Below, piece by piece: positions 3,141-36,849 of a stretch of 64,000 nt of DNA (positions are counted from its first letter, which is position 1; the number at the start of each line of letters is the position of its first letter). The notes beneath the pieces were generated by a model. The model saw nothing but the letters and a program-made list of their open reading frames with translations. It was not told where the DNA came from and searched no databases. The position numbers and the translations under genes were made by a program. The stretch is taken from contig CAVSDB010000001.1 of the NCBI GenBank assembly GCA_963726755.1, forward strand, positions 1,341,225-1,405,224, in the 5' to 3' direction. Source of the stretch: an uncultured Actinomycetota bacterium (lineage in GTDB: Bacteria; Actinomycetota; Actinomycetes; JAHEKZ01).

Positions 3141-4223
3141 TCAGTCGAGGACCAACAATTCCCGGGAGGTGTTCGTCAATACTTCGACCCGGTCGTGATG
3201 AACGACGACGGTGTCCTCGATTCGCACTCCGCCGCGCCCGGCAAGGTAGATGCCGGGCTCAACCGTCACCGGGACGGCTGCTGCCAGTCTATCGGCTGAG
3301 TTTCGCCCCAAGAATGGCGCCTCGTGGATGCGCAGCCCGACTCCGTGCCCCAAACCGTGACCGAACGCGTCGCCGAAACCTGCTTGTTCGATAACCGAAC
3401 GGGCGGCATGGTCGACATCGGCTGCCGCAGCGGTGGCCGTCAGGGCGGCACGTCCGGCCGCTTGCGCCTCAGCTACCACGGCGTAGATCTCCGATTGCCA
3501 ATCGCTGGGTCCTCGACCGACTAATACCGTGCGCGTCATATCAGCGTGGTACCCGGCGACCCGGCCCCCGAAGTCCATCTTGAGAAGGTCGCCGCGCTCG
3601 ACTTCTCGCTCGGTCGGGCTGTGGTGGGGAATCGCGCTGTTCTCCCCTGTCGCCACGATGGTTTCGAAGGCCGGTTCATCTCCGGTGAGATCACGAAGCG
3701 CATCGTCCAACCAACGAGCGATCTGGCGTTCCGTCACGCCAGGATGTACCTGCGGTAACACCAGCGCCAATGCTTGGTCAGTCGCCGCACACGCTTGGCG
3801 CAGATACGACAACTCGGTTTCGTCTTTCACCATGCGCTGCTCGGTCACGAGACCGCCGACCGGTATCAACTCGCAAGAACTCGTGGCAGCCAACTCGGCG
3901 AACTCACGAACGGAAAGGGCCTCGTCCTCGAATCCCACCGTCGAGTGTCCTTGACCGGCCGCCAGCGCAATCAGGGCTGCCGCACATTCACGAGTGATGA
4001 CGCTCGGTACGTCAGGGCATTGCTCGCTGGCCGGGATCTCGTAGCGAGAATCGGTTGCCAGCGTGCTGCCCCCGTCTGCCAGCAACATGAACGCGCCATT
4101 GGATCCGGTGAAGCCCGTTAAGTGTTGAACATTAACCAGATCGGTGACGAGAACGGCCGACATGTCTCGAGAAACCATTGCTGCGGCCAGCCGCTGTCGT
4201 CGCGCGTTCTCGATGTCAGGCAC
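3141..4223 (-). CDS. pepQ: Xaa-Pro aminopeptidase/dipeptidase, M24 family
   Basis: Track ORF, 360 aa. HGLGHGVGLRIHEAPFLG metal-binding motif. Conserved position between efp and aroQ. Confidence 0.85.
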   Translation of the reverse strand: MPDIENARRQRLAAAMVSRDMSAVLVTDLVNVQHLTGFTGSNGAFMLLADGGSTLATDSRYEIPASEQCPDVPSVITRECAAALIALAAGQGHSTVGFEDEALSVREFAELAATSSCELIPVGGLVTEQRMVKDETELSYLRQACAATDQALALVLPQVHPGVTERQIARWLDDALRDLTGDEPAFETIVATGENSAIPHHSPTEREVERGDLLKMDFGGRVAGYHADMTRTVLVGRGPSDWQSEIYAVVAEAQAAGRAALTATAAAADVDHAARSVIEQAGFGDAFGHGLGHGVGLRIHEAPFLGRNSADRLAAAVPVTVEPGIYLAGRGGVRIEDTVVVHHDRVEVLTNTSRELLVLD

Positions 4224-10955: not shown

Positions 10956-11768
10956 TTAGACACCCAAGAGACCGCGATACCAGTCCCAGATTTCGCTGCC
11001 CCACACAATCGCGATGAGGGCGCCGGCCAACATGAAGGGACCAAATGGGATCTTGGTCTTTCGTCCCGCGCGCTTGAACAGCATGAGAGGGATGCTCACC
11101 AATGCACCCAGTGCGAACCCCAGAAAGCCGCCGATCAACACGAAACTCCAGCCCAGCCAACCGAGGTACAGCCCCAGGACAGCGGCAAGTTTTACGTCGC
11201 CGAGTCCCATGCCCTTTGGATAGATAAGGACGAGGACGAAGTAGAAGGCACAGAGGGCTAGACCGCCGAGCAACGCTCGTAGATACGCGTCCCAGGAGCC
11301 GTCTGCTATCGCTGGTAGTAGCAACAACAGCGCACCAACAACCATCGAGGGATACGTCAGTGCATCAGGCAGTTTGTGGGTGTCGAGGTCGATCACCGCA
11401 AGCGCAACGCCTACCGCGCCCAGGTAGAGGTAGGCGGGAAGTTCCCAGGTGATGCCGATCGAAATCGTCAGCACTACGAAGACAACCGCTGTGAGTAGCT
11501 CGACCGCTGGGTACCGAATGGAGATTGGCTCAGAACAATGGCGGCAGCGACCACGCAAGAGCAGCCAACTCAGTACCGGAACGTTGTCCCTTGCGCCGAT
11601 CTCGGTTCCGCAGCCGGGGCAGCGTGACCGTGGTCGAACCACAGACTCGCCACGCGGCACTCGGTACGCGACGACGTTAAGGAACGAACCGACCAGGAGC
11701 CCGAATATCCCTACGAAGAGCAGCGCGAGATACACCGGACCACCGTAGTGGTCGATCTGACCGGACAC
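10956..11768 (-). CDS. pilD: prepilin peptidase (A24 family)
   Basis: Track ORF, 270 aa. N-terminal CxxC...CxxC zinc motif (CPGCGTEI...CRHCSEPI) plus polytopic membrane domain with GLGDVKL. Confidence 0.85.
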   Translation of the reverse strand: MSGQIDHYGGPVYLALLFVGIFGLLVGSFLNVVAYRVPRGESVVRPRSRCPGCGTEIGARDNVPVLSWLLLRGRCRHCSEPISIRYPAVELLTAVVFVVLTISIGITWELPAYLYLGAVGVALAVIDLDTHKLPDALTYPSMVVGALLLLLPAIADGSWDAYLRALLGGLALCAFYFVLVLIYPKGMGLGDVKLAAVLGLYLGWLGWSFVLIGGFLGFALGALVSIPLMLFKRAGRKTKIPFGPFMLAGALIAIVWGSEIWDWYRGLLGV

Positions 11769-13474: not shown

Positions 13475-14187
13475 GGACTCGACGAGGGCTGCGGGACGGC
13501 ATCTGCGTTCGGGAGGGAAACTCTGGTGGTGTACGAGGTGGGCGGAACTCCGTTGAGGGTGGAGGTCTGGACCGACACGTAGACATCGACACTGTCGACG
13601 GACGCGAGATCAGCAGCTGATAGGGGTCCGCCTGTTCCCAGTTTCACGCCGTCTTTGTTGTAGTACGTAAACAAGTCCGTCGTAGCAAGAACACCGGTCG
13701 CAAGCCTGCGGGTGTTGACTACGCAGCCACCGGTGCCAGGCGTGCAGTACTGGTAGTTGTAGTCCGTGGGTGCGTGAGCATTGGGCGGCTGGATCGTCTC
13801 CCACAACTCGCCATTTGTTCTACGTTCATATGTCACACGGCTCGGTCCAACGCTGTTCGAGTCGTTGTTGACGTTCGCGTAGAACTGCACCTTGCTTGGC
13901 TCAGCCTTCAAGAACGCAGCCAAGTCACACCCGGTGCACGTACCGTTCAACTGCGAAGGCAGCACAGCCGTACGAAGGTTGCGCGAGATCGCCTCCATGG
14001 AGAGGCGTCCTTGCTGGCTCTGGTCGGCGCGCGTGATGTTTGCAGTCGTCGTGCGCTGCGCCATGATCAGCGTTCCCTGAACCGCAGCCATCACGACGCC
14101 CAGGATGAACACCGCCACGAGAATTTCGACCAAGGTGAAGCCGCGGTCTGTCTCGTTGTCCCTCAACCGCTTCTGAATCCATCGCAT
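13471..14187 (-). CDS. minor pilin with prepilin-type N-terminal cleavage/methylation domain (PilV/PilW-like)
   Basis: Track ORF 13471..14292 trimmed to Met of MRWIQKRLRDNETDRGFTLVEILVAVFILGV. The GFTLVE motif marks a class III signal peptide. Start overlaps the upstream stop (TGATG). Confidence 0.7.
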   Translation of the reverse strand: MRWIQKRLRDNETDRGFTLVEILVAVFILGVVMAAVQGTLIMAQRTTTANITRADQSQQGRLSMEAISRNLRTAVLPSQLNGTCTGCDLAAFLKAEPSKVQFYANVNNDSNSVGPSRVTYERRTNGELWETIQPPNAHAPTDYNYQYCTPGTGGCVVNTRRLATGVLATTDLFTYYNKDGVKLGTGGPLSAADLASVDSVDVYVSVQTSTLNGVPPTSYTTRVSLPNADAVPQPSSSP

Positions 14188-15539
14188 CACAGAGTCACCA
14201 CCGAAAGTGCCGTTACGCCGGAGGTCGGGAGCAAGCTCGCCGTGGTTGGCCACGAACCCGACGGGCTCTTGCCGGTGACTTTGATCTGCCATTTACCGGC
14301 CGGAAGTGAGGCATTCAGAACACCCGAGGCGTTCGTCGTACCCACCGTGATCGGGTTTTCTGTCGTGCCACAGGTCGTCGTGGTCACCGGAGTGGCGGTG
14401 ACGACCGCATTCGGCACGGCGACACCGAGTGTGTTCTTCACCGTCAGCGCCATCGGGGCCAGACGAGTAGTCGTTGTCCCGGTTCCCGCTGGGGCGATGA
14501 TGATCGCTGGTGAACGTGTGCCGCCGGCCGTTGCTGGGTCGGACTGTGCGCATGAGCCGGCCCACAGGCTGTAGCCGTCGGTGAATGGCCACAGCGAGTT
14601 CACGGTTGTCGTCGCGCTGCTGGTCGTTACGACGCGAGTTCCGGTCGGCTGTAGCCCGGTGTTGGCAAGGGTCAAGGCTGGCCACGAAGCTGGTAGCGAG
14701 TATCCGCCCTCAGTGATGTACGTGACTGCCAGTGTCGCGGCCTTGTCGTAGTTAATGGTGACCTGCGACAGAGTTCCAGCGGTAACGACCACTGACTTAT
14801 CTGGTGTTTGGTCGCCATAGAAGTCCACGTAGCCCGGTTCGTTCATCGATGCCGTGTACGTACCGGGAGTGGACAGCGCGAACACCGCGCAACCGTCGAC
14901 GGCTGTGGTGTCGCTGAACGTGCCTGCGGGTCCAGTGATCGAGACCGTACGGTTCTTGCTCGGCAGGCCAGCTGCATCCAGGACCTTGACGCCGACGAAT
15001 GACAGCGTTGACGACAGCACACCCTTCGGTGGCGTCAGCACTGTGTTGGACGTCGACGGGAGGAACCGTGCCCATGTTGGGCCACGAAACCTCGACGTTC
15101 ACGGCAAGCGTTGGGTAGGTAATGGCTGCGCCACCGTCGCAACTGCTTTGACCGGTTCCGGCTGGCAGCCACTCGACATTGCGCTTGACCGTGTACGGAA
15201 TCGCCGTCCACCTTCAGGTCGGCACCGGCGCTCTGGCCAGGCAACGGATGTGGGTTCAGCACGAAGTTGGCGGCCGCCAACGCACCGGGCGCCGTCAACG
15301 ACGAGTTGAACTCATTGCGCGTGATTTCCAACTCGCGCGATGCGAGATTGGCCGCAGCTACCCGGTTCTTGTCCAGGCGCGTGGTCTTCATCGCGGCTGC
15401 CAAGCCCCATAACAATGGCGCTGGCGACGATCGAGAAAATCACCATCGCGACTACCAGCTCGATAAGCGTGAGTCCCCCCTCACCATCAAGCTGAGCACG
15501 ACGGCGAAAAGAGAGAAGATTCGGCCATGACCTCTGCAT
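14187..15539 (-). pseudogene. large pilin-like protein (FimT/PilX-like) with prepilin N-terminus; at least 3 frameshifts
   Basis: N-terminus in ORF 15312..15602 (GGLTLIELVVAMVIFSIVAS), middle in ORF 15035..15415, then a third frame (WTAIPYTVKRNVEWLPAGTGQSSCDGG...), and C-terminus in ORF 14187..15041. Traced by hand. Confidence 0.5.
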
Positions 15540-15590
15540 GGGCGTCTTATCGGCATCTGAAATAGCCGACTTGAACGGGGACGAGCAACG

Positions 15591-15624
15591 GCTCGGGGCC
15601 ACACCGTGTGGTGTGCCCCCGAGC
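15591..15624 (-). terminator. hairpin terminator downstream of pilA copy 1
   Basis: GCTCGGGGCCACACC/GGTGTGCCCCCGAGC near-perfect stem. No strong U-tract (an I-shaped terminator, common in actinobacteria). Confidence 0.4.
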
Positions 15625-15663
15625 CAGTTGCATCTGATTCACCCTGGGTAGTACAATGGGTGA

Positions 15664-16077
15664 TCAGTTGTTCACGCAAACGCCGCCGGCAGCCTGGAGG
15701 CCACCGTCGTTGCTGTCGTAGATCCAGTTGGCCTGCGAACCAGGCTGCGCACCGGCGATACGAGTGATGGTCACGCAGTAAGACGAACCGATGGTCGAAA
15801 CGGCCACCGCTGCGTTGTTACCTGGCGAAAGCTTGACTGCAGCAGGAACCGCAGCCGGGTAGGTCTGAGTGTCAGTGAACGCAGTTTCCATCTCGTTGGC
15901 CACCGCGCGAGCGTCAGCCTTCATCGATGCGTCAACAGCCTTCTGACGCTGGTTCAAGAACACCGGGATAGCAATAGCAGCAAGAATACCGATGATGATA
16001 ACGACGACCAGGAGCTCGATGAGGGTGAAGCCTTCCTCATTCTCGTCCATGGCCTTACGGATGCGAGCGAGCATCAT
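15664..16077 (-). CDS. pilA: type IV major pilin PilA, copy 1
   Basis: Track ORF 15664..16128 trimmed to the MM start with GAAGGGA ribosome-binding site. MMLARIRKAMDENEEGFTLIELLVVVIIIGILAAIAIPVF is a canonical type IVa prepilin leader plus N-methyl-Phe helix. Confidence 0.85.
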   Translation of the reverse strand: MMLARIRKAMDENEEGFTLIELLVVVIIIGILAAIAIPVFLNQRQKAVDASMKADARAVANEMETAFTDTQTYPAAVPAAVKLSPGNNAAVAVSTIGSSYCVTITRIAGAQPGSQANWIYDSNDGGLQAAGGVCVNN

Positions 16078-16317
16078 TTGTCCCTTCAGGACGTAACGGT
16101 GAGCCGTACGGCGCTCGCCCTGGACCACCCCTAAGGGCTGACCGAGGTAGCTGGGCTAACCACATGGGTCCCCTGGCTTTGCGAACCCGCCTCACGACGG
16201 GAGTGCCTTGTCTGGCCGGTTGGCTCTTTACAAGTACTGTTTCGACCCCCCACATACCCGTCTTGAGCCACGATGATCACAGACTTCACCGGCGAGTTCC
16301 ACCGCTGACAACAAGCA

Positions 16318-16351
16318 GACTCGGGGCCACACCGTGTGGTGTGACCCCGAG
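16318..16351 (-). terminator. hairpin terminator downstream of pilA copy 2
   Basis: ACTCGGGGCCACACC/GGTGTGACCCCGAGT, paralogous to the copy-1 hairpin. Confidence 0.4.
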
Positions 16352-16395
16352 TCCTGCTAGTGATAATGCGATCAGATGATCTGGTGATCAGCCGA

Positions 16396-16809
16396 TCAGT
16401 TGTTCACGCAGACCCCGCCGGCAGCCTGGAGGCCACCGTCGTTGCTGTCGTAGATCCAGTTGGCCTGCGAACCAGGCTGCGCACCGGCGATACGAGTGAT
16501 GGTCACGCAGTAAGACGAACCGATCGTCGAAACGGCCACCACTGCCTTGTTACCTGGCGAAAGCTTGACCGCAGCAGGAACCGCAGCCGGGTAGGTCTGA
16601 GTGTCAGTGAACGCAGTTTCCATCTCGTTGGCCACCGCGCGAGCGTCAGCCTTCATCGATGCGTCAACAGCCTTCTGACGCTGGTTCAAGAACACCGGGA
16701 TAGCAATAGCAGCAAGAATACCGATGATGATAACGACGACCAGGAGCTCGATGAGGGTGAAGCCTTCCTCATTCTCGTCCATGGCCTTGCGGATGCGAGC
16801 GAGCATCAT
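16396..16809 (-). CDS. pilA: type IV major pilin PilA, copy 2 (one amino-acid difference from copy 1)
   Basis: Track ORF 16396..16860. Identical 154-aa translation except SPGNNAAVAV vs SPGNKAVVAV. Confidence 0.85.
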   Translation of the reverse strand: MMLARIRKAMDENEEGFTLIELLVVVIIIGILAAIAIPVFLNQRQKAVDASMKADARAVANEMETAFTDTQTYPAAVPAAVKLSPGNKAVVAVSTIGSSYCVTITRIAGAQPGSQANWIYDSNDGGLQAAGGVCVNN

Positions 16810-17270
16810 TTGTCCCTTCAGGACGTAACGGTGAGCCGTACGGCGCTCGCCCTGGACCACCCCTAAGGGCTGACCGAGGTAGCTGGGCTAACCACTGGGT
16901 CCCCTGGCTTTGCGAACCCGCCTCACGACGGGAGTGCCTTGTCTGGCCGGTTGGCTCTTTACAAGTACTGTTTCGACCCCCCACATACCCGTCTTGAGCC
17001 ACGATGATCACGACTTGGCATCACACCCAGACGGCCCAACGTCCAGTGGCGCCTTCAAGAGCCGGCGTGCTCTGCGCGCTCCTTGATCCCATGGAACGTC
17101 CCGCGAGCCATGACAGATCGGCGGGGATGATGGCCATGAGCTGCGCAGCGAGTTCGTGTGGGGATCCACCTCACGACGGTGAAGAAGGCAGTCCCGGCCC
17201 AAATGGCTTCGGGGCTGGTGTCGATGGTGATCGCAGGGTTAGTCGCGACCTGCGGACAGGCTTCCCCTGA

Positions 17271-17694
17271 CTAGCTCTCGATCATGCTTGGGCGAAACCT
17301 CCGACCTGACACTGCATCGACCTCGACACGCACAAAGACCGGCTTAGGGCCTCGTTGCCAGGCGATGACCGGCAGACTCAAAACTGTCAAGTATTTCGTG
17401 AACGTTCGTCAGGGAACGAGCTCGTCCCTTGAGCACGACGCTCCACGCCTCGCCGGATTCTTGGTCCACTCCGTCAACCTCGAAGGCGACGCGGTGCCCA
17501 TCTGCCGCGTTGAGTTTGGTCCCGAGCGCTGTTCGGAACATCACCGTGCCGTGGTCGACCAGATGGTTGACCGGGAAGATCTCTGGCTGCTCGTCCAAGA
17601 CCACTGCCAGCCGCCCCACTTGCGCACTTCGGACTAGATCCCAACAGGTGTTATCTCGAAGCACCTCGATCGCATCGGTTCCGTCTTGTTGCAT
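17271..17694 (-). pseudogene. pyridoxamine 5'-phosphate oxidase family / F420-dependent-like small enzyme; C-terminus frameshifted near 17345
   Basis: Track ORF 17344..17694 (116 aa PPOX-like). The expected C-terminus PVFVRVEVDAVSGRRFRPSMIES* is in another frame immediately downstream. Confidence 0.5.
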
Positions 17695-17805
17695 GTCTGA
17701 CCTCCCATCGACCGTTCACCGGTTCCACCTTGGGCCGAGCGGCGGTGCCTTACCCGGGCAAGAAGTCCCGATGTTTTGCTTTCGCCCCTCCCCTAGGGTG
17801 AATTC

Positions 17806-19428
17806 GTGGATCCTGGCTCCGAGCGGATAGCGCGACTACTGGACGCCGTGCTCGCGGTCAGTTCCGATCTCGATCTGTCCCAGGTGCTGTCCCGAATCGT
17901 CCAATCTGCCTGCGATCTGGTCGACGCGAGGTATGGCGCCCTTGGTGTGCTCGCTCCGGAAGGTGAACACCTGGTCGAGTTTGTGACCCAGGGACTCTCC
18001 GACGCGAACGGCGGGCTATTGGCGACCTGCCGCACGGGCGAGGAATTCTCGGATTGCTGATCCGTGACCCTCAACCGCGACGCGTCCGCGACATCGCGAC
18101 GCATCCGGCCTCCTACGGTTTCCCGCCAAACCATCCGCCTATGCACAGCTTCCTGGGGGCGCCCATCGCCATCCGCGGAAGAGGTGTTCGGCAACCTCTA
18201 TCTGGCCAACAAGCAAGACGCACGTGGAGTTCAGCGCAAGACGATCAGGAAGTCGTCGTCGCGTTGGCCGCGGCTGCTGGCGTCGCCATCGACAACGCGC
18301 GCCTGTACGACCGATCGCGCCGGCAACGCGAACTCGCTGACGCGCTTGCCGAGATGACGCAGCATCTTCTGGAAGGCATGGAAACCGACGCGGCCCTTCG
18401 CTTGATGGCCCGGCGCAGCGCTGAGATGGCGGTTGCCGAGCTCGCCGTCGTGGCGCTGTATGACGAAGGTGGTCGACTTACCGTCCGCGCGACCAACGAC
18501 GAACGACCCTCGCATGGTGTTGGCCTTGAACTTGACCCCGACTTTCGATGGAGCGAGTTGGTCGCACGCCGGTTGCCATATCTCATTTCCGAACCCGACC
18601 AAGACTCGAACACCGAGCTGGCTGAAATCCGACAACTGGGTTCACTGGATCCCGACGGTCCCACAGCGATCGTCGCCATCGCAGTCGGTGACGCCGAGCT
18701 CGGGGTGCTTGGCGTCGCATGGAACTCTGACCAAGACGTTGCCGCCCGTCAGTCACTCGACTCTTTACACACCTTTGGGCGAACGGCTGCGCTAGCCCTC
18801 GAGGCAGCAACTGCTCAACGTGAGCGTGGGCGGGTAGCACTTCTTGAGGATCGAGACCGAATCGCTCGAGACATGCATGACCACGTGATTCAACGGCTGT
18901 TCGCCACCGGACTGTCGTTGCAGTCGACCAGGCTGATGACGTCGGATGACGCGGTGTGCCAGCGACTCGACGAGGCCGTGGACGCGATTGACGTGGCGAT
19001 CAAAGACATTCGAGAGGCGATCTTCGCGTTGCATCGTCCGATCGGAGGTCTTGGTGTTCAGGCCGAAGTCGACGAACTTGTCCGCCACGCCGGCCGCACG
19101 CTGGGGTACAACCCAGAGGTCAGCACGAGTGGATCGTGGGGCTCTCTGCCGTTCGGAGATAGAGCCGGAGTTGTTGGCAGTCGTCCGCGAGGCCCTGTCG
19201 AACGTCGTTCGCCACGCTCAGGCGAGCTGGTGTCGAGTGTCGGTCCACGTGACCGATTCGGTTGTGAGAGTCGAGGTGGAAGACGACGGAATGGGGATTC
19301 CCAAGGACGCTGAGTTGAGCGGACTCAGGAATCTCGAGCGACGAGCTGCCCGGCTCGAACGGCAGCCTGCAGTTGGCCGCTCGCCATCCAACGGGAACCG
19401 TCCTCATGTGGCAGGTGCCGGTCAAGTA
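17806..19428 (+). pseudogene. GAF-GAF-HisKA_3-HATPase sensor histidine kinase (DevS/DosT-like); at least 5 frameshifts
   Basis: ORFs 17806..18060, 18054..19313, 18064..18357 (GEEVFGNLYLANKQDARG GAF signature) and 18946..19524 (HATPase: LAVVREALSNVVRHA...VEVEDDGMGIP). HisKA_3 RDRIARDMHDHVIQRLFATGLSL. The true C-terminus LAARHPTGTVLMWQVPVK* is in yet another frame. Confidence 0.7.
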
Positions 19429-19435
19429 GGGCAGG

Positions 19436-20078
19436 TCAAGAGTCAGGTTGCTGTTGGTGGGTTACCGCAAACACCGCAGCCTGCGTTCGACGCTGCATGC
19501 CGAGCTTTCCCAGTATCGACGTGACGTAGTTCTTGACCGTCTTCTCGGCCAGCGACATCGATTCGCCGATTTGCGCGTTCGTCTGTCCGTCGGCAATGTG
19601 TTGCAGAATTCGTCGCTCCTGCGGAGTTAGCGCTGACAGTCGAGGATCTGTTCGAGTGTCGCCCCAGCGGTCGCGGATCTGCGCGCGACGCGCTTCGTCG
19701 ATCAGTGACTCACCGGCCGCCACCTTGCGTATCGAGTCGACCAGAGTGTTTCCCTTGACGTCCTTAAGTACGTACCCGGCAGCACCGGCGCGATCGCGCT
19801 TGACCAGCGCCTGCTCGTCGTCGTACGACGTCACGATGAGCGCTGCGATGCTGGGATCAACGGAACGAATGTCTCGACAGGTATCGATGCCCGACCCATC
19901 GGGCAGCCGCGCATCCAACAGCGCGACATCGGGACGAAGCGCCGGAATCCTGCGAGTTGCTTCGAGAGCCGAACCCGGACTCTCCGACCACTTCGATGTC
20001 GTCCTCGCGCTCGAACAACTCTCGGAGCCCGCGTCGGACGATCTCGTGATCGTCGAGAATGAACACCCGAATCGTCAT
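19436..20078 (-). pseudogene. NarL/LuxR-family response regulator (DevR-like); one frameshift near 19950
   Basis: Receiver N-terminus in ORF 19857..20078 (MTIRVFILDDHEIVRRGLRELFERED). Rest, including the HTH (LTPQERRILQHIADGQTNAQIGESMSLAEKTVKNYVTSILGKLG), in ORF 19436..19918. Confidence 0.75.
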
Positions 20079-20172
20079 CGTCGTCCGTCAACCCCAATCG
20101 TCTTGGCAGTCGAACGATAGTGGCCTCTCAGACTATGACGCGACCGACGGACTATCGGCAATACTCCCGTCA

Positions 20173-21395
20173 CTACTTGATGAGGTCGAAGACCTTGAAG
20201 ATGGGCATGTACAGGGCGATGATCATGCTTCCGACGAGACCACCGAGCACTGCGATCATCAGTGGCTCGATCAGCGCAGTCAGCGACTCCGTGGTCGACT
20301 CGACTTCTTGGTCGTAGAACTCACTGATCTTCTCGAGCATGGCGTCCAGCGCACCGGTGTCTTCACCGACCGCCAGCATCTGCACGACCATGGGCGGGAA
20401 GATCGCGTGGTGGGTGAGTGGTTCGGTGAGCGACTCACCATTGCGGACGCTGTCCTGGACGTCGCGAACAGCTCGTGCCACCACGACGTTGCCCGACGTG
20501 TCGGCAACGATGTCGAGGCTCTGCAGGATCGGGACACCGGCGTGGAGCATGGTGCCGAAGTTGCGAGTGAAGCGGCTGAGCGCAATCTTCTGGAACAGCG
20601 GGCCGAAGACCGGGATCTTCAACTTGATGGGGTCAAGGACGTTACGTACTTGCTCCTTGTGCTTGATCTTCTTCCAGATGATCACGAAGGCGATAAGGCC
20701 AATGGCGATAGGGATGAAGCCCATCTTCAACAGATCGCTCAACTTGACCAGCAGCAGCGTGGGAGCAGGCAGTTGCGCGCCAAGACCTTCGAACATCTTG
20801 GCGAAGATCGGCACGATGAACAGCAACATGCCGGTCACCGCGAGAAGCGCCATCACGAACACCACAACCGGGTAAGTCATGGCGCTCTTAATCTTGCCCT
20901 TGAGGCGTACTTCCTCTTCATAGTTCGCCGCAATACGAAGCAGCACACCGTCCAAGAATCCGCCGACCTCACCGGCTCGAACCATGTTCACCATGAGCGG
21001 TGGGAAGACTGCCGGGTGTTCGGCCGAGCGCGCCGGAGAGCGCGTTACCGTTTTCCACGCTGTTGCGGACCTCGCCCAGGACTCCTGCCAAGCGTCTTGT
21101 TGGGAGTCTGCTCCGAGAGAATGTTGAGGGCACGCATGAGCGACAGACCGGCACCGATCATGGTGGCGAACTGTCGCGACATGACCGCGATGTCCTTGAG
21201 CTTGACCGAACCGCCGAATCCGGGGATCTTCAGTTCGGTCTTCATCCCAGCTTTGTGCTCGGTGATGGTGACCGTCGCGTAGCCCAGGCTTGACAGTTTT
21301 TGTGCCACCGCGCCCTGGGACTCGGCCTCGATCGTCCCCGTGACGATCTTGCCCGCCTTGTCCCGGACCTGGTACTGGTACATCGTCGTTCCCAT
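20173..21395 (-). pseudogene. pilC: type IV pilus platform protein PilC (GspF family); 2 frameshifts
   Basis: N-terminus in ORF 21045..21395, a short middle piece in ORF 20969..21154 (LAGVLGEVRNSVENG), C-terminal two-thirds in ORF 20173..20994. Confidence 0.8.
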
Positions 21396-21415: not shown

Positions 21416-22472
21416 TCAGCCGCGGCCGGTCAGGCGGTTGAAGTCTTCGATGTGATGAGACTTCTCAGCACCGGTTTCGTACGTGATGCGACCCTTGTTC
21501 ACCAGGTCCGCGAGGTGCTGGTCCATCGTCTGCATGCCGTACTTGGTGCCGGCCTGCATGGAGCTGTAGATCTGGTGAGTCTTGCCTTCACGAATCAGGT
21601 TCCGGATGGCTGGAGTTGCCACCATGACCTCGCAGGCCACAACGCGGCCCTTGCCGTCTGCCGTGCGAGCCAAGGTCTGGCAGACGACACCCTGGATGGC
21701 GGTCGCCAACTGAGCGCGCACCTGCTGCTGCTGGTGCGGGGGGAAGACGTCGATGACACGGTCGATGGTCTGCGCCGCGTCCTGGGTGTGCAGGGTCGCG
21801 TAGACGAGGTGACCAGTTTCAGCCGCAGTTAGCGCAACAGAGATGGTCTCGAGGTCACGCATTTCACCGACCAGGATGATGTCGGGGTCCTGACGCAGCA
21901 CGTGCTTGAGCGCGTTCTGGAAGGACTTGGTGTCCTCCCCCACTTCGCGCTGGTTGACCAGACACGACTGGTGGCGGTGCAAGAACTCAATCGGGTCCTC
22001 ACACGTCATGATGTGGTCTTTGCGGTTTCGGTTCGCCATATCCACCAAGTGAGGCCAGGGTCGTGGACTTGCCCGATCCAGTTGGTCCGGTGACCAGCAC
22101 GAAACCTCGCGGGAGCATCGAGAAGTTGGCAACCGACTTGGGAACCCCCAAGTCCTCGAGCCGCTTGATTTCGAACGGAATGATTCGGAAGGCAGCGCCG
22201 ACCGCGTCCCGCTGCCGATACATGTTGACTCGGAATCGAGCCCGACCTGGGACTGAGTAGGCGAAGTCAAGTTCGAAGACTTCTTCGAAGATCTCTCGTT
22301 GGCGCTGGGTGATCGCCGCGTACATCACGCGCTGGATGACCGGCGGAGTCAGGACCGGGTACTCATCCATCTGGAGTGAGTTCACCGTTGACGCGAATCG
22401 CGGGACGTGCCCCAGCCGTCAGGTGAAGGTCGGACGCGCCTCGCTCGAGCATGGCGAGCAGCAGGTCGACCA
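21416..22472 (-). pseudogene. pilT: twitching-motility retraction ATPase PilT; at least 2 frameshifts
   Basis: N-terminus (..DLLLAMLERGASDLHLTAGARPAIRVNGEL) found by hand at ~22380-22470, then ORF 21999..22385 (Walker A LVTGPTGSGKSTTLASL), then ORF 21416..22270 (IEFLHRHQSCLVNQREVGEDTKSF...). Confidence 0.8.
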
Positions 22473-23279: not shown

Positions 23280-24977
23280 TCACGAAGAACTAGTCCGCCA
23301 ATAGCCAGCTAGACCACGACGCGCAGGATCTCGTCGAGTGAGGTGACACCCTGCAGCACCTTGGACAGGCCGTCCTCGCGCAGCGTGACCATGCCTTCTT
23401 CGCGGGCCGCGACGGTGATGGCTGCCGACGAAGCGCGTTCGACCGCCAGCCGCTCGATGTTCTCCGAGACGGCCATCACCTCGTGCAGGGCCAGTCGGCC
23501 CTTGTAGCCGGTCTTGGAGCAGGCCGGACACCCGATGGGCCGATACAGCGTCGGCAGCGGCGTGCCCTTGCTCCCACGGGAACCGCGCGGCAACCATGGC
23601 CTCAGCGGTCGGCTCGTAGGCTTCCTTGCACTTCTTGCAGAGTCGACGGGCCAGGCGCTGGGCGAGCACACCGTCCACCGCCGATCCGACAAGGAACGGC
23701 TCCAGACCCATTTCCGTCAAGCGGGTGATGGCCGAGGGGGCGTCGTTGGTGTGCAACGTGGAGAGCACCAGGTGGCCGGTCAGGGCCGCCTCAACGGCGA
23801 TCTGGGCCGTCTCGTGGTCACGAATCTCACCGATGAGCACGATGTCGGGGTCGCATCGAAGGATCGAGCGAAGTGCCGCGGCGAACGACAGTCCAGCTTT
23901 GACGTTCGTCTGCACCTGGTTGATGCCAGCGAGTCGGTACTCAACCGGGTCCTCGACGGTGATGACGTTGACCTCAGGACGAGCGATCTGGTTCAGCGTG
24001 CCGTACAGCGTCGTGGACTTGCCAGAACCCGTTGGTCCGGTGACCAGGATCATCCCGTAGGGCTTGGTGAAACTCGACGAGTAGATCTCGTAGTTGTGGT
24101 CTGAGAACCCGAGGTCAGTCAGCGCCATCGCGGCCTGCGAGTTGTCCAGGATTCGCATGACGACCTTCTCGCCCCACACCGTTGGAAGGGTGGCGACACG
24201 AAGGTCGATCTTCTTGCCGTTGTAGTTGACCGACAAGCGGCCGTCCTGCGGTACCCGTCGTTCAGCAATGTTGATGTCCGACATGATTTTCAGTCGGCTG
24301 ATAACACCGGACTGGATGTTCTTGGGCGACTTCATCACCTGGTGCAGGACACCATCGATGCGGTACCGGACGACGAGCGAGTGCTCGCCTGGCTCGAGGT
24401 GAATATCCGATGCGCGGTCCTGAATTGCCTGCGTAATAAGCAAGTTCACGTACTTGACGATGGGGGCGTCTTCGACGACCTCTTTGACCGACGAGAGGTC
24501 TTCGTCGTCGGCGTCGTTGTCAAGAACCGCCGTGAGGTCATCGAGGTCGGAGTCAGCGCGGTAGTACCGGTCAATGGCCGAGAGAACATCCGCTCGAGTA
24601 GCGACCACTGGCTTGACGTCATAGCCAGTGATCGATCGAACGTCGTCGATCGCGAAGACGTTCGCTGGGTCAGCCATCGCCAGCAGGAGCTTGCCCTCGT
24701 CGTCGACGCGGAGCGGCATCACGCTGTACTTGCGACAGATCTCGCCCTTGACCCGGCCGACGATGCTGCCGTCAACGGGATAGTCGGCCAGGTCGACAAA
24801 CTCAAGTCGAATCTGCTGCGCCAATGCCGCCACGAGCTGGGACTCGGTGAGGAAGCCTCGATCGACCAGAATGCGGCCGAGTGCCTTGCCTTCGGTCTTG
24901 TGCATCTGGAACGCCTCGGCGAGCTGGTCTGCCGTAACCAGGCCGCTCGAAATCAAGATGTCGCCCAGTTGCGTCAC
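23280..24977 (-). pseudogene. pilB: type IV pilus assembly ATPase PilB (GspE family); C-terminal frameshift near 23600
   Basis: Track ORF 23280..24977 carries the N1 domain, Walker A VTGPTGSGKSTTLY and the CKKC zinc motif. The true C-terminus (YRPIGCPACSKTGYKGRLALHEVM...LDEILRVVV) is in ORF 23309..23692. Confidence 0.85.
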
Positions 24978-25319: not shown

Positions 25320-25895
25320 CTACACGCTGGCCGGAGTGGCTTCGACCTCGTCGAGGACCGAGTAGAGCAGCGCGAGCAGCACTGACTTCACCGACTCCTT
25401 GTCGGTCGCGTCGCAGGGCACCATAGGCACCGCTGGACTGATCCCAAGGGCCTGCCGGATCCTGGCTTCCTCGACCTCGTCGACGCCTTCAGTGCGGTTC
25501 AGCGCGACAACGAAAGGCACTCGGGCCATCTTTCGGAACGCGGCCAGAATGCCAACCGCCTCCTGCAATGAGTCCGAGCGGGTGACGTCCAGCAACAGGA
25601 TGTACCCGAGCATGCCCTCACCCAGGATTTCCCACATGAAGTCGAAACGTTCCTGACCAGGGGTGCCGAACAGATACAGCACCAGTTCGCGATCAATGGT
25701 GATGCGACCGAAGTCCATCGCCACGGTGGTTTCGTTCTTCCGCGACTTGGTGTGGTCGGTGATCCCTCTCTCAGTTGAGAGCACGGTGATCTCACTGATC
25801 GTGCGAATCAGCGTGGTCTTACCAGCCGAGAACGGTCCGGTGATAACGACCTTGACGGCCTGACCACCGTGACGTCGACGCTTGTTGTTGGCCAT
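25320..25895 (-). CDS. small Ras-like GTPase (MglA/CvnD-type 'ATP/GTP-binding protein')
   Basis: Track ORF, 191 aa. P-loop GPFSAGKTT, TTVAMDFGRI, LYLFGTPGQERF (G3) and ALNRTEG (NKxD-like). Start 4 nt after the upstream stop. Confidence 0.75.
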   Translation of the reverse strand: MANNKRRRHGGQAVKVVITGPFSAGKTTLIRTISEITVLSTERGITDHTKSRKNETTVAMDFGRITIDRELVLYLFGTPGQERFDFMWEILGEGMLGYILLLDVTRSDSLQEAVGILAAFRKMARVPFVVALNRTEGVDEVEEARIRQALGISPAVPMVPCDATDKESVKSVLLALLYSVLDEVEATPASV

Positions 25896-25899
25896 GGCT

Positions 25900-27159
25900 T
25901 CAGAGCCCCCGCACGCCGGCGATGAGTCGCAGCATCAGACTGCGATTGACCGTGGGATCACGCTCGATGGCTGCTTCCCCGACGGGTTGTACCGCCGCGG
26001 CAGCCCCGCCCGATGCGGTGGCAGACACCACCGAAGAGGCCTGGGGAGCGACGGGGGCAGCCGGTGGCGCCGGGGGGGCTGGAGCGGCAGGTGACGCAAA
26101 ACTGCTCCGAGCCGGTTCCGGGTGGTCGATAGCACGTTTGGGCATGAACGGTTCGGGTCGCGGCGGAACCACATTGAGCGGATCGTGGGCTCCACCGAGG
26201 AGACCGGGGGCAGCTTGAGCAGCCGCTGGCGCCACAGCAGGTTGCTCAACGGGCGCTGGCTGAGCCGGCACCGCGGGTGTTGACGGGATCTCGGGGAGCA
26301 TGTGAGATTCGGCCGCCAACCCTGGAACCGGTGGGGCTGAGACTTGCGGTTCGGGGGGTGCGCTGGCTGGCGCCAGTGTTTCAGTGGAAGTGGTCGGGGT
26401 GATTTCAAGCGGACCCAGAAGTTGCTGACGTCGCTGAACCAACTCGATGTGATCAGGTGCTTCCTCGTCACGAATGACGAGCATCCCCCGCTGAACTAAG
26501 GCGGTCAGCGTTGCGACCACAGCGAACTGACTTGCTCCAGAAATTTCAACAATGTCGCCAACTGACCGCTGACCGTCGACCAAGGCCAGCAGCGACCATT
26601 CGTCTCGAGTAAGGCTCTGATCACCGGTAACCACGACGGGCATGGTGAGCAGCACGTCTGGCGAAGGAATGACCTTGGATACCGCATCCCAGTTTTCGCG
26701 GCGGGCAGTGGCCTCAGACACCACGTGCTCTGACGAAACCGCGAGCCCGACATCGTCTGGGTTGTCCTCGCCGACGCCGAAGGCAAAGTCCCCCTCGACC
26801 CATCGCAGCAGGTCGAAGACGGAATCGATTGCCTGCTCGAGGGCAAGCTGCTGGATCAGTTCGCCGTTGACTGCCCCGGATTCGAGGAGGGCACGGGCAA
26901 CACCGACACCCTCAGTTGTCGCTCGCTCAACGGCCCGTCGCAATGCTGCGTCGTCGCAGGCGCCAATGCCGACGAGACGACGTGCCAGGGACTGACGTGC
27001 GGCGTTGGAGCACGCACCGGTGACCACTCCGGCGTTGAAGTAGACGACGCCGGTGGCCTGGCCGTTGGCCAGGTGCAACCCCCCGGACTTCTTCGTCAGG
27101 CTCAGCAGCTGGAAGACATCCGGAAGGCTGAAGGCGTCAAGCGAACCTTCGAGCTTCAC
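25900..27159 (-). CDS. PATAN (DUF4388) domain protein with Pro/Ala-rich C-terminal half
   Basis: Track ORF, 419 aa. N-terminus MKLEGSLDAFSLPDVFQLLSLTKKSGGLHL is the PATAN/DUF4388 signature. Second PATAN-like stretch DEWSLLALVDGQRSVGDIVE. Confidence 0.65.
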   Translation of the reverse strand: MKLEGSLDAFSLPDVFQLLSLTKKSGGLHLANGQATGVVYFNAGVVTGACSNAARQSLARRLVGIGACDDAALRRAVERATTEGVGVARALLESGAVNGELIQQLALEQAIDSVFDLLRWVEGDFAFGVGEDNPDDVGLAVSSEHVVSEATARRENWDAVSKVIPSPDVLLTMPVVVTGDQSLTRDEWSLLALVDGQRSVGDIVEISGASQFAVVATLTALVQRGMLVIRDEEAPDHIELVQRRQQLLGPLEITPTTSTETLAPASAPPEPQVSAPPVPGLAAESHMLPEIPSTPAVPAQPAPVEQPAVAPAAAQAAPGLLGGAHDPLNVVPPRPEPFMPKRAIDHPEPARSSFASPAAPAPPAPPAAPVAPQASSVVSATASGGAAAAVQPVGEAAIERDPTVNRSLMLRLIAGVRGL

Positions 27160-27186
27160 GTGTGTTCTCGTTCCTCGTCGTGGTGG

Positions 27187-28008
27187 TTAGTTCCAGGAGC
27201 CGTTCTCTGGAGCGACTGACGAGCCTGCTGCCGCCACCGTTGTGCCGTTCGAGTTCGATCGATCATCACGCTCGGCACGGCCATTCCAGGCACCCGTCCC
27301 GTTCGCTACTGGCGCCGGGAGGTACGAGGTGTCATCAGGCTCAGCCAACTGCGCGACCGGCTGCACCTGGTGCACCGGCTCGGGCTGTTCCTGCTGTTCC
27401 TGATGTTCTGGCTGCTCTTGCTGGTCGACGAGGCTGTGTTCTGCCAGCAACGGAATGGTCTCCTGGGGGGCTTCCTCGACCGGCTCCAGGGTGGGCATCA
27501 CCGGGGCGATGACCGCCAGTACTGGCTCTGCGACGGTTTCGGGAGCGGCTTCTTCAGGCACTGGAGCCACGGCGACCAGCGGTGGCTGAGTCGACTCGTG
27601 CTCGACGCGAAGGCTATTCGCGACTGCTTCGGCTGCCTGCTTGACCTCGAACAGCATCAGGCCGACCTTGGCGCCGCGGCGTCCGACTGCGACCAGTACG
27701 GCCTCGTCGTCGGCGCTGACCAAGAAGACCGTCCCGTTGTCACCCTCGACGTAGACCTGGGAAAGCTCCCCGCGGCCTAGTCCTTGGGCCGCCCGCTCGC
27801 CCAGTGAGAGCAGCGCCGCCGACATCGCGGCTACCCGGTCTTCGTCCATACCCGCGGGTAGGGCCGAGGCCATGGGTAGGCCGTCGAACGACACCACCGA
27901 TGCGGCCTCAAGATCGGGGGCTTGTCTGAGCAACGTGGCGAGCACGTGGTCGAGCTGGGCCGATCGGTTGCTCGCCCCGGCTGTTGCACCGGCGTATGGG
28001 TCGGACAT
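27187..28008 (-). CDS. Roadblock/LC7 (MglB-like) domain protein with Gln/Glu-rich C-terminal tail
   Basis: Track ORF 27187..28032 trimmed to Met of MSDPYAG with GAGAGG ribosome-binding site. LDHVLATLLRQAPDLEAASVVSFDGLPMAS...GTVFLVSADDEAVLVAV is typical Roadblock/LC7. Confidence 0.65.
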   Translation of the reverse strand: MSDPYAGATAGASNRSAQLDHVLATLLRQAPDLEAASVVSFDGLPMASALPAGMDEDRVAAMSAALLSLGERAAQGLGRGELSQVYVEGDNGTVFLVSADDEAVLVAVGRRGAKVGLMLFEVKQAAEAVANSLRVEHESTQPPLVAVAPVPEEAAPETVAEPVLAVIAPVMPTLEPVEEAPQETIPLLAEHSLVDQQEQPEHQEQQEQPEPVHQVQPVAQLAEPDDTSYLPAPVANGTGAWNGRAERDDRSNSNGTTVAAAGSSVAPENGSWN

Positions 28009-28117
28009 AGTGCACCTCTCGCACGGAACCACTCAACAGAACGCACTCAAGAGAACGTCCCCGTCGACTTCAAAAGGCGTCCGTCCGCGACGGTGCCTGG
28101 GATGTGCTTCGGCGCTG

Positions 28118-35088: not shown

Positions 35089-36849
35089 TCAGGTTTTGCG
35101 GGTTTCGGGTTTTGGTGGTGTGGGGTCGATGCCGGCTTCGGCTCGTTGGGCCGCAGTGATCGGCGTCGGGGCTCCGGTCAAGGGGTCGCCGCCCGAGGCG
35201 GTCTTGGGGAACGCGATGACCTCACGAATCGACTCCGCTCCACCGAGCAACGCGACGAGTCGGTCAAGCCCGAAGGCGATCCCACCATGTGGCGGGGGGC
35301 CGTACTTGAACGCTTCGAGCAGGAATCCGAACTTGCTCTCGGCTTCTTCTTCAGAGAAACCGATCACATCGAATACTCGACGCTGTACGTCTGACCGGTG
35401 GATACGAATCGAGCCGCCACCGATCTCGTTCCCGTTCAGCACCATGTCGTACGCAAACCCGAGGGCCTCCGCCGGTGACTTATCGAACGACTCGAGCCAG
35501 TCAGTGTGCGGTGACGTGAACATGTGGTGGACAGCAGTCCAGCCACCCTCACCGTCGGCCTCGAACAACGGCGCGTCAACGATCCATAGAAACGCCCACT
35601 GCGACTCGTCGATCAAATCGCAGCGTTGACCGATCTCGAGTCGAGCAGCACCCAATAGAGGCAGCGCTTCGGACCGCTCCCCGGCAGCAAAGAACACCGC
35701 ATCCCCAGGGGTGGCGCCAACCGCGGAAGCTAACCCATCGCGCTCCGCATCGGACAGGTTCTTCGCCACCGGACCACTCAGTGAGCCGTCTGGCTGCAGC
35801 AGGACGTACGCCAACCCACGTGCACCCCGAGCCTTCGCCCAGTCCTGCCAACCATCGAGTTCCTTGCGGGACTGGCTGGCTCCCCCTGGCATGACCACCG
35901 CGCCGACGTGCCACGAGTCTGACTGCCGCTGAAACACCCGGAACGTCGTCTCGGCGAAGTAGTCGGTCAACTCAACCAGTTCGCAGTCGAACCGGACGTC
36001 GGGCTTGTCCGAGCCGTAACGCTTCATCGCCTCCGCGTACGTCAACTGCGGCAGCGGCAGAGGGACCTCGTACGCATGGATGTCGCGCCACAACGCGGCG
36101 ACGATCTCTTCACCAAGCGTCAGTACGTCAGCCTGCTCGACGAACGACATCTCGATGTCTAGCTGTGTGAACTCCGGCTGCCGATCCGCACGAAAGTCCT
36201 CGTCACGAAAACAGCGCGCGATCTGGTAATAGCGCTCCATGCCCGCGACCATCAGCAGTTGCTTGAACAACTGCGGCGACTGCGGCAGCGCGTACCAAGA
36301 ACCTGGCTGCAGGCGTACTGGGACCAGAAAGTCGCGCGCACCCTCGGGCGTTGACCGCGTCAGGTACGGAGTCTCGATCTCTAGGAAGTCGTGCTCGTCC
36401 ATGACGTCGCGAATCACCTTGGTCGCCCGTGCCCGCAATCGGATCAAGCGACCAGGCTCTTCACGACGCAGATCGAGGTAGCGATGCCGCAACCGCGCGT
36501 CTTCGCCAACGGTTAGATGCTCGTCGATCGGGAACGGGAGTGGCGCGGCCTCTGACAGCACTTCGACCTCAGAGACGATGACCTCGACGCCGCCACTCGG
36601 CAACTCCGGATTCTCGTTACCCGCCGGGCGTTCGACAACTTCTCCGACGACTTTCAGGCAGTACTCACTACGCAGGTCGCCAGCAACCGCCGAGTCGCGG
36701 ATCACCACCTGCGCCACACCTGAGGAGTCGCGCAGATCCAAGAACGCCACCCCACCGTGGTCGCGACGACGCGCAATCCACCCAGCCAGGACCACCTGCT
36801 CGCCCGCATCTGCGGTGCGCAGCGTCCCAGCCCCTCGGGTGCGGATCAC
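35089..36849 (-). CDS. aspS: aspartate--tRNA ligase
   Basis: Track ORF, 586 aa. Class II aaRS motifs ([26 protein letters not shown]). Confidence 0.95.

Follow-up and report, generated by a model that had tools for sequence, protein, structure and literature searches.

Riboswitches of the GEMM family have been known since 2007 to lie adjacent to pilus genes, the hosts in that survey being delta- and gamma-proteobacteria, Firmicutes, and Planctomycetes (PMC1950547). In Clostridioides difficile, the major pilin gene pilA1 is preceded by a class II riboswitch for cyclic di-GMP (c-di-GMP), a terminator-based ON switch in the account of Bordeleau et al. 2015 that is given in PMC6916266. From actinobacteria, the RsiG-(c-di-GMP)-WhiG switch of Rubrobacter radiotolerans and the FliA sigma factors of Actinoplanes missouriensis have been described (PMC8325347, PMC12871210), and two adjacent major pilins are encoded by pilE1 and pilE2 of Streptococcus sanguinis (PMC6916266). 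GEMM-I elements by pilus genes, a class II switch on pilA1, WhiG-type pilus promoters, and tandem major pilins are all already known. Here, we describe a 64-kb stretch of DNA from an uncultured member of the Actinomycetes (contig CAVSDB010000001.1; in the following, the window), in which two tandem copies of a major type IV pilin gene, pilA, each appear to be headed by a c-di-GMP-I riboswitch.

Judging from sequence comparison and modelling, it is likely that these are two complete, independently transcribed major-pilin cassettes, each composed of a promoter, a c-di-GMP-I leader, a prepilin gene, and a terminator, which would be controlled at the level of translation and maintained by gene conversion. 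Each would run from a TCAA-N16-GTCGAAAC promoter through a riboswitch leader of ~155 nt and a 137-aa prepilin gene to a stable terminator hairpin (Table 1), and the arrangement presumably affects pilin dosage or the mix of isoforms.

As in the RF01051 family (Vc2 of Vibrio cholerae; Bc1/Bc2 of Bacillus thuringiensis), the leaders show a GNRA hairpin, the junction nucleotides, a second hairpin, and a location in a 5' untranslated region (5' UTR). They differ from that family in their uncultured actinomycete host, in the gene they precede, which is that for the major pilin of type IV pili in a monoderm bacterium, in a short P3 stem, and in a platform that has no terminator and carries an extra helix, P0, together with a segment complementary to the start region. 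As in C. difficile pilA1, a c-di-GMP riboswitch leader precedes the gene for the major type IV pilin in a Gram-positive host, and pilin supply would be under its control, but the riboswitch here is of class I rather than class II, its platform looks translational, and the whole cassette is duplicated. The WhiG/FliA systems of Rubrobacter and Actinoplanes are resembled by motifs fitting the consensus before pilus genes, here the pilA copies and the minor-pilin operon; a riboswitch is not mentioned in PMC8325347 or PMC12871210, whereas here a c-di-GMP sensor is predicted in the mRNA downstream of the promoter. Like pilE1 and pilE2 of S. sanguinis, the two adjacent major pilins could co-assemble in one fibre. 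Unlike the diverged tandem pilins within the same family, the entire promoter-riboswitch-gene-terminator cassette is repeated here and in a genome of 82% identity (locus L082).

Two tandem pilin cassettes

A repeat search and pairwise alignment of the window revealed two direct-repeat units on the minus strand with a period of 731-732 nt, copy A being the downstream one. The repeat pairs 15662-15961/16394-16693 and 16165-16280/16896-17011 are 98% and 100% identical, and a 32-nt palindromic hairpin block (15592-15623/16320-16351) is 97% identical. In the alignment of the units, identity spans from GTGATCATCGTGGCTCAAG to the stop codon, followed by ~45 nt without convincing similarity and then by the common hairpin. 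The coding sequences (CDS) differ at 7 of 414 nt (98.3% identity), and the ~200 nt of promoter and leader are identical except for a single 1-nt indel in the P3 loop; divergence is limited to the ~45-nt spacer between stop codon and hairpin (~55% identity) and to the inter-unit junction. The products of copies B and A are present as separate database proteins, P0243 and P0244, on the same public contig of 1,516,276 bp.

The tandem duplication of pilA, reported in the original prediction with a unit of 732 bp, is confirmed by these repeats and alignments, as is the assignment of its own leader and terminator hairpin to each copy, the hairpins being strong (z about -6). The pilins, said to differ at a single residue, in fact differ at two, N88K and A90V. 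As for the view that the coding parts are alike while the intergenic parts have diverged, its first half agrees with the identity given above, whereas between the genes only the spacer and the junction have diverged, promoter and leader being nearly identical. The leaders were noted correctly, but their identity as c-di-GMP-I riboswitches behind a WhiG/FliA-type promoter went unrecognized, and it is riboswitch and promoter that form the functional core of the unit.

The terminator hairpin (CGGGGyCrCAsC…GsUGyGGCCCCG) is also kept in the tails of the related loci L081, L082, and L083, despite coding sequences that are only ~80% identical; by this comparison, its conservation exceeds what a generic terminator would need. 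Another peculiarity of the tails are TGATC(A/G) motifs with a period of ~8 nt just after the stop codon of copy B (window 16355-16398, minus strand) and of both L082 copies (2790-2840 and 3522-3545), reading GGTGATCA / GCCGATCA, while copy A has one such motif only.

Both proteins begin with MMLARIRKAMDENEEG/FTLIELL, i.e., a prepilin leader followed by the segment FTLIELLVVVIIIGILAAIAIPVF, and match the Pfam family N_methyl with an E-value of 2.3e-07. The residues G16-F17-T18-L19-I20-E21 are invariant in 51 homologues, so that the leader ends in glycine, with a glutamate at +5 and a hydrophobic N-terminal segment of alpha-1. An AlphaFold2 model of copy A, calculated with the 51-sequence alignment, shows a lollipop fold in which a helix (residues 19-70) is combined with strands 87-93, 100-106, and 118-121; its predicted local distance difference test score is 82.6. 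Type IV pilins are its top matches in the PDB, although the E-values of 0.02-0.3 are weak. By these sequence features, both genes are identified as type IV (class III signal peptide) prepilin genes. Residues 88 and 90, at which the copies differ, are predicted to lie in strand beta-1 at positions i and i+2 and to face the same side.

A difference confined to a short beta-strand patch with both residues on one face, together with gene conversion acting between the copies, is what might be expected of a phase- or antigenic-variation system, for which the original prediction had seen a classic substrate here. We regard this as very improbable: both copies are complete and have their own promoter, only two amino acids differ, the host is environmental, and neither silent cassettes, an invertase or invertible element, inverted repeats flanking the promoters, nor a homopolymer or other slippery short tandem repeat in the CDS was found.

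Aptamer, platform and promoter of the leaders

A scan of the whole window against Rfam gave three matches above the gathering score, namely one tRNA and two RF01051 aptamers, one in each pilA leader. Both aptamer matches cover the full length of the model, are located on the coding strand in the 5' UTR, and end 65 nt before the respective pilin ATG; clan competition in Rfam retains RF01051 over the variant models, and the scores in relatives range from 45.7 to 54.4 bits. The first hairpin is GNRA-capped and has a 3-nt internal loop, the cap being GUGA here and GUGA, GCGA, or GCAA across the leaders. Invariant in 29 distinct leaders are GGCA, with a G at the position equivalent to G20, the junction block CGCAAAGCC (CAAAG), and CC before P1; for G20 and C92, we presume the riboswitch numbering of the Vc2 structure. 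An A at the G20 position marks the GEMM-Ib riboswitches that bind cyclic GMP-AMP, while a G marks a c-di-GMP binder, and the intercalating A in CAAAG and C92 are ligand contacts. P2 and P3 covary with compensatory changes (9 and 29 sequences), paired cells amounting to 90.5% compared with 26-44% when the partners are slid. From this comparison, the leader core is identified as a c-di-GMP-I (GEMM-I) aptamer, and its invariant core and covarying stems indicate purifying selection on the predicted binding core.

P3, with ~10 bp and a 5-nt loop, shows no obvious tetraloop receptor, and Rfam skips 13-17 model positions there. Since this receptor in the second hairpin is optional and occurs in about half of the c-di-GMP-I members (PMC1950547), its lack does not exclude membership in RF01051. 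The truncated P3 and the modest Rfam scores (42 vs 35 bits) would nevertheless suit a degenerate or re-targeted aptamer, serving another dinucleotide or only structure or stability, and some pilin leaders of Solirubrobacterales match the c-di-GMP-I-GGC variant model best, which indicates that the binding site can drift in leaders of pilin genes. Considering that RF01051 is retained in clan competition, that the G20-equivalent, CAAAG, and CC are invariant in 29 leaders, and that the stems covary, we hold such a re-targeting to be improbable and continue with c-di-GMP as the predicted ligand. In Thermoleophilia, a part of the elements fits RF03167 (c-di-GMP-I-GGC) with 59-61 bits, better than the canonical model; to our knowledge, this variant has no established ligand.

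Folding of the whole leader by itself gave no signal (z -0.24), and RNAalifold, applied to a MAFFT alignment of full leaders, recovered the aptamer only, after which the platform was examined helix by helix. According to our model, the leader of ~155 nt would combine the aptamer core with a family-specific extension made up of P0, a segment X, and a hairpin of the Shine-Dalgarno sequence (SD). The outer helix P0 is formed by GAGCC near the 5' end of the leader and GGCUC, which follows the aptamer at a distance of ~45 nt. In 29 leaders, its columns show compensatory changes (16/167: CG 13, UA 7, UG 4; 17/166: GC 8, AU 2; 18/165: AU 7, CG 7), which identify P0, on comparative grounds, as a true helix. 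X is a G-rich segment just 5' of the P0 3' strand and complementary to the start region; GCGAGCG can pair with CGCUCGC in codons 2-4 in the window, and AUCUGCC with GGCAGAU across the AUG in another subgroup, the same pairing being reached with different sequences. For the duplex between X and the start region (X:START), the mean energy is -14.6 kcal/mol, and 12 of 28 leaders outperform their shuffled versions (z < -1.64). When the ensembles are left unconstrained, the partner of X is the aptamer flanks (mean 5.5 bp), and forcing the ligand-bound aptamer costs 5-16 kcal/mol, with X:START pairing going up in eight and down in four of the 29 leaders. Under the same constraint folding, the accessibility of the AUG rises in 11 of 27 leaders, a count that is confounded by a local hairpin in the CDS. 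A relay between X and the anti-SD, first read by eye, was rejected, since it did not outdo shuffled controls (mean z -0.52, with significance reached in 4 of 28).

No hairpin with a U-tract is present between aptamer and ATG in any leader examined, and platform segments are complementary to the SD and the start region; therefore, the models make translational control the most likely mode. The other option, an action on transcription by Rho-dependent or intrinsic termination, or on mRNA stability, is rather unlikely, though it has several points in its favour. Many characterized c-di-GMP-I and c-di-GMP-II switches use terminators, including the class II switch of C. difficile pilA1, HP1 and the GCC-GUAC-GGC hairpin are stable stem-loops, and some actinobacterial terminators do without U-tails. 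What speaks for translation, beyond the missing hairpin and U-tract, is that the conserved complementarities are directed at SD and start codon and that a survey of riboswitches in Actinomycetota reports a bias toward translational platforms (PMC12452182).

For a translational switch, we propose that X, sitting inside the domain closed by P0, would re-pair between the aptamer flanks and the start site and in this way make the initiation of translation dependent on c-di-GMP. In the OFF version, ligand binding would free X, which would then block the start site. The folding leans weakly toward c-di-GMP turning translation OFF, and the chances of an ON switch, as in C. difficile pilA1, are roughly even. 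If true, silencing at high c-di-GMP would be the opposite of the clostridial case and would agree with the logic of RsiG-WhiG, in which high c-di-GMP silences pilus genes.

In locus L083 (52-137), the aptamer is joined straight to the SD (…GGUUACC/UGAAGGGAAGAAAGAUG). About 67 nt are missing between two CCU repeats, which removes the P1 3' strand, HP1, X, the P0 3' strand, and the anti-SD; either natural deregulation or a fault of the assembly could explain this form.

Upstream of the leaders, both pilA copies carry TCAA-N16-GTCGAAAC, while the actinobacterial WhiG/FliA consensus reads T(A/C)AA-N16-GCCGATAA or CTCA-N16-17-GCCGAACT (PMC12871210; PMC8325347). The single mismatch, at position 2 (GTCGA vs GCCGA), leaves the central CGA intact, and the published search rule, T(A/C)AA-N16-GCCGA or CTCA-N16-17-GCCGA, permits one mismatch outside the central CGA (PMC12871210). 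Owing to the long leader, the -10 element lies ~160 nt from the ATG; the published rule asks for a motif within 200 bp upstream of the start. The block GCTCAAG-N-(G/A)nCGAAAC is conserved upstream of every leader, and the minor-pilin operon with its perfect consensus sits just downstream of copy A. A scan for sigma-70 promoters gave no match. WhiG-family control of type IV pilus genes has been shown or predicted in Rubrobacter, Actinoplanes, Cellulomonadaceae, and others (PMC8325347, PMC12871210). The pilA promoters are thus probably of the sigma-28 family (WhiG/FliA-type); as the window contains no sigma-factor gene, this assignment is drawn from the motif itself.

Distribution and duplication history

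To follow the pairing of riboswitch and pilin, a covariance model built from nine aptamers was run over 80 metagenome loci encoding relatives of the window pilin. Close relatives were obtained via protein search and metagenome scan; among the matches listed in a scan of genome contigs, there was no close relative, the best being a Kineosporiaceae metagenome-assembled genome (MAG) with 55% identity. The element was present in 31 of the 80 loci and in the closer relatives L081-L083, and in 33 of the 35 leaders with an automatically assigned start the match ended 46-68 nt before the pilin ATG; L083, a deletion variant, and L152, a weak match, depart from this. L081 has a single copy with the aptamer in the same place and pilC directly upstream, L082 has two aptamer-pilin copies, and L083 has one copy at a contig edge. 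The aptamer likewise precedes pilins of Solirubrobacterales MAGs and of one Egicoccus MAG, and it was not found in the sampled loci of cultured Kineococcus, Nocardioides, Cellulomonas, Actinotalea, Actinoplanes, Leifsonia, and Bifidobacterium. As far as sequence can tell, the predicted riboswitch-pilin pairing is conserved. Relatives of the window pilin often come as tandem paralogues; where these have diverged (40-55% identity), the riboswitch is present at the first gene only. In Thermoleophilia, pilin arrays with several riboswitches per locus were observed (L007 3602-3700, L012 2208-2291, L019 2802-2882).

A related population, ~95% identical to the window and represented by contigs from JGI and ENA samples, provided insights into the history of the duplication. 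In L084, L166, and L168-L171, a PNPOx-like gene is followed by a B unit with the B-type spacer and hairpin, while L165 and L164 contain a unit with an A-type tail followed by the minor-pilin operon. The last 126 nt of L166 recur, with 100% identity, at the start of L165, so that in this population, too, B is followed by A. Its inter-unit spacer measures ~200 nt compared with ~40 nt in the window, which marks the inter-unit junction as an indel hot spot; in the related population, the spacer (L166 1652-1775, L165 1-198) holds a direct repeat, GTGCGGAATTGAACG(A/T)CTGA…CAATTTCGCAC. L082 has the same two-unit layout with a period of 732-734 nt, its copies having leaders of 79% and CDS of 97.3% identity, with the upstream copy frameshifted in the assembly.

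With the orthology of the copies fixed by their copy-specific 3' tails, a 620-nt unit was compared among copies A and B of the window and of the related population. Twenty sites group the paralogues within each population, and the orthologues are united by only two, positions 602 and 620, which lie at the extreme 3' edge; singleton sites number five in copy A of the window and two in copy A of the related population, which differs from the window by 21-28 substitutions per unit. This concerted-evolution pattern is a signature of gene conversion, read from the alignment over promoter, riboswitch, and nearly the whole CDS, and the boundary of the converted tract adjoins the copy-specific tails. 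Because these tails are shared by both populations, the duplication appears to predate the population split and is, on this reading of the sites, old relative to strain divergence. Four of the five singletons of the window's copy A are located in CDS nt 241-286, the patch holding N88K and A90V, and at three patch sites the outgroup state is retained in this copy, the derived state being common to copy B and the other population. This patch resembles a remnant of the ancestral A sequence, so far spared from overwriting. Gene conversion would therefore hold the cassettes to near identity between the promoter and a point just short of the stop codon, and the two pilin isoforms would stem from the one patch left unconverted.

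The same near-identity could come from a recent duplication without gene conversion, in which local indels made the spacers differ. Promoter and leader identical bar one indel, a CDS identity of 98.3%, and the fact that five of the eight between-copy substitutions in the 620-nt unit are private to copy A would agree with this. Youth, however, does not explain a spacer of ~55% identity between flanks of 97-100%, nor two tails that are conserved in a population 21-28 substitutions away while 20 derived or lineage-specific sites against two follow the paralogues. The three outgroup-state sites are found in copy A only, and L082 shows the same contrast, with 79% in the leaders and 97% in the CDS. 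A recent origin is accordingly hard to support, and we give it little credence. Of the options in the original prediction, the old duplication homogenized by gene conversion is the one favoured by the shared tails and the site counts; the comparison with orthologous loci proposed there showed the two-unit layout to recur in the 95% population and in L082.

Several observations weigh against our overall reading of the cassettes. P3 is short and the Rfam scores exceed the cut-off by only 7 bits. No whiG, rsiG, or GGDEF/EAL gene is present within the 64-kb window. In the folding calculations, the accessibility of the SD is unchanged on average under constraint, isolated duplexes of X with the aptamer flanks are not better than shuffles, and the window's own leaders show strong X:START pairing with and without the forced aptamer; because pairing is predicted in both states, the thermodynamic picture is incomplete. 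The related population was pieced together from contigs of different samples. The window contains many frameshifts, so that sequencing errors may account for single-base differences between copies A and B, among them the 1-nt indel of the P3 loop. Finally, L164 joins the upstream flank of B to a single unit with an A tail and is either a collapsed assembly or a natural single-unit recombinant.

The many frameshifted genes, typical of an error-prone long-read MAG, and the short-read contig L164 would also be in line with a second copy that is an assembly artefact, be it a false repeat expansion or two strain haplotypes placed in tandem. The copies, however, differ in their ~45-nt 3' spacers and flanks, in independent assemblies each unit is found with its own tail, B in L166, L168, and L084 and A in L165, with the perfect 126-nt overlap between L166 and L165, and L082 has the same layout. 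A collapsed or expanded repeat, which the original prediction had considered, is largely refuted by these assemblies from other samples, and we find an artefact scarcely credible.

Genomic context and implications

Around the cassettes, the minus strand carries a complete type IV pilus cluster with pilB, pilT, pilC, the two pilA copies, minor pilins, pilD, pilM, and pilO, with aroC/aroK/aroB beyond pilM and pilO (Table 1). On the other side of the cluster, mltG, ruvX, alaS, aspS, hisS, relA, secDF, and ruvB indicate core chromosome. AlaS is 100% identical to a protein on the same public contig as P0243 and P0244; its nearest named relatives are MAGs labelled "Actinomycetes bacterium", and it is 66-68% identical to those of Frankiales, Sporichthyaceae, Nanopelagicales, and Longivirga. 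Many genes of the window, among them the essential hisS, are split into several open reading frames (ORFs), and the first minor pilin is one continuous protein of ~430-460 aa in L164 and L082, a pattern suggesting indel errors from long-read assembly, not pseudogenes; single-base indels of the window therefore call for a cautious reading. A filter on the GC content of third codon positions, tried as a gene picker, failed at 62.7% GC.

Table 1. Positions of the pilin cassettes and of selected neighbouring genes in the window
Feature	Position (nt)	Strand	Remarks
Copy B promoter, -35-like TCAA	16994-16997	-	WhiG rule match; block kept in relatives
Copy B promoter, -10-like GTCGAAAC	16970-16977	-	central CGA retained
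Copy B c-di-GMP-I aptamer (predicted)	16875-16948	-	RF01051 42.5 bits (gathering 35), E 6e-05; own covariance model 106.5 bits
Copy B platform (predicted)	16810-16874	-	P1 3' strand, HP1, X 16842-16854, P0 3' strand GGCTC 16833-16837, anti-SD/SD hairpin 16812-24
pilA copy B	16396-16809	-	137-aa prepilin, K88/V90; identical to P0243
Copy B terminator hairpin, then UCUGCUUGUUGUC	16318-16353	-	-40.2 kcal/mol, z -6.1 vs shuffles
Copy A promoter, -35-like TCAA	16263-16266	-	WhiG rule match
Copy A promoter, -10-like GTCGAAAC	16239-16246	-	WhiG rule match
Copy A P0 5' strand GAGCC	16222-16226	-	pairs with GGCTC 16101-16105
Copy A c-di-GMP-I aptamer (predicted)	16143-16217	-	RF01051 42.4 bits (gathering 35), E 6.4e-05; own covariance model 109.2 bits
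Copy A platform (predicted)	16078-16142	-	P1 3' strand; HP1 16127-38; X 16110-22; P0 3' strand 16101-05
Copy A anti-SD/SD hairpin GTCCTGAAGGGAC	16080-92	-	GUCCU-GAA-GGGAC pairing of SD
pilA copy A	15664-16077	-	137-aa prepilin, N88/A90; identical to P0244; downstream copy
Copy A terminator hairpin	15590-15625	-	-42.9 kcal/mol, z -6.0 vs shuffles
Minor-pilin operon promoter TCAA-N16-GCCGATAA	15547-15574	-	perfect WhiG/FliA consensus; kept in L083, L081, L164
First minor pilin	14187-15602	-	N_methyl minor pilins; split in three ORFs
pilD	10956-11768	-	A24_N_bact + Peptidase_A24
GAF histidine kinase	18054-19524	+	GAF-HisKA_3-HATPase; split ORFs
pilC	20173-21395	-	T2SSF; split by frameshifts
pilT	21416-22385	-	split by frameshifts
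pilB	23280-24977	-	MshEN + T2SSE
hisS	36846-38107		split into adjacent ORFs; essential gene

Between pilC and copy B, the window contains ~3.1 kb (17012-20172) that are absent from L081 and L082, in which pilC abuts the pilA leader. This segment holds a Pyridox_ox_2 gene (17344-17694, minus strand), the GAF kinase on the plus strand, and an ORF without Pfam match (19533-20120), and 17139-17265 seems to be what deletions have left of a 218-aa gene, of which L166 and L084 have an intact form. Directly upstream of pilB, the minus strand (25320-28032) encodes a small GTPase (Ras-like/ATP_bind_1) along with proteins of the DUF4388 and Roadblock/LC7 families; together, these may represent an MglA/MglB-like polarity module of the pilus cluster; in L081, the same GTPase adjoins pilB.

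The N-terminus of PilB (24800-24977) is of the MshEN type, reading QLGDILISSGLVTADQLAEAFQMH - KTEGK - ALGRILVDRGFLTESQLVAALAQQ, and keeps the layout of a c-di-GMP-binding site, two motifs with a 5-residue linker. Compared with PMC5013675, the spacing and most hydrophobic positions are kept, while Q and A stand in for the two leading arginines and histidine for the first closing glutamine, and binding of c-di-GMP by PilB is, from these residues, doubtful. The C-terminal ~100 aa of the PilB ORF, rich in Arg, Gly, and Pro, look out of frame.

Few c-di-GMP effectors are known in Actinomycetota, among them proteins such as BldD and RsiG. In the literature searched, we found no c-di-GMP riboswitch on actinobacterial pilus genes and no account of this combination in actinobacteria, of the P0/X platform, or of the duplication of a whole cassette with concerted evolution. 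Whether the locus is the first c-di-GMP riboswitch regulon in Actinomycetota, with an mRNA sensor atop a WhiG-type promoter, a translational OFF switch built from P0 and X, and a duplication that doubles the output with two isoforms, can only be suggested tentatively, the full set of these claims being possible but unlikely.

If the leader binds c-di-GMP, the pilus regulon published as controlled by the WhiG family would receive a second input at the RNA level, and the leader would offer a compact model of a translational c-di-GMP-I platform. The pattern of sites across populations provides a clean, small case of the concerted evolution of a whole regulatory cassette, comprising promoter, riboswitch, and gene. 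For annotation, the lesson is that long conserved leaders before actinobacterial pilins deserve a check against Rfam.

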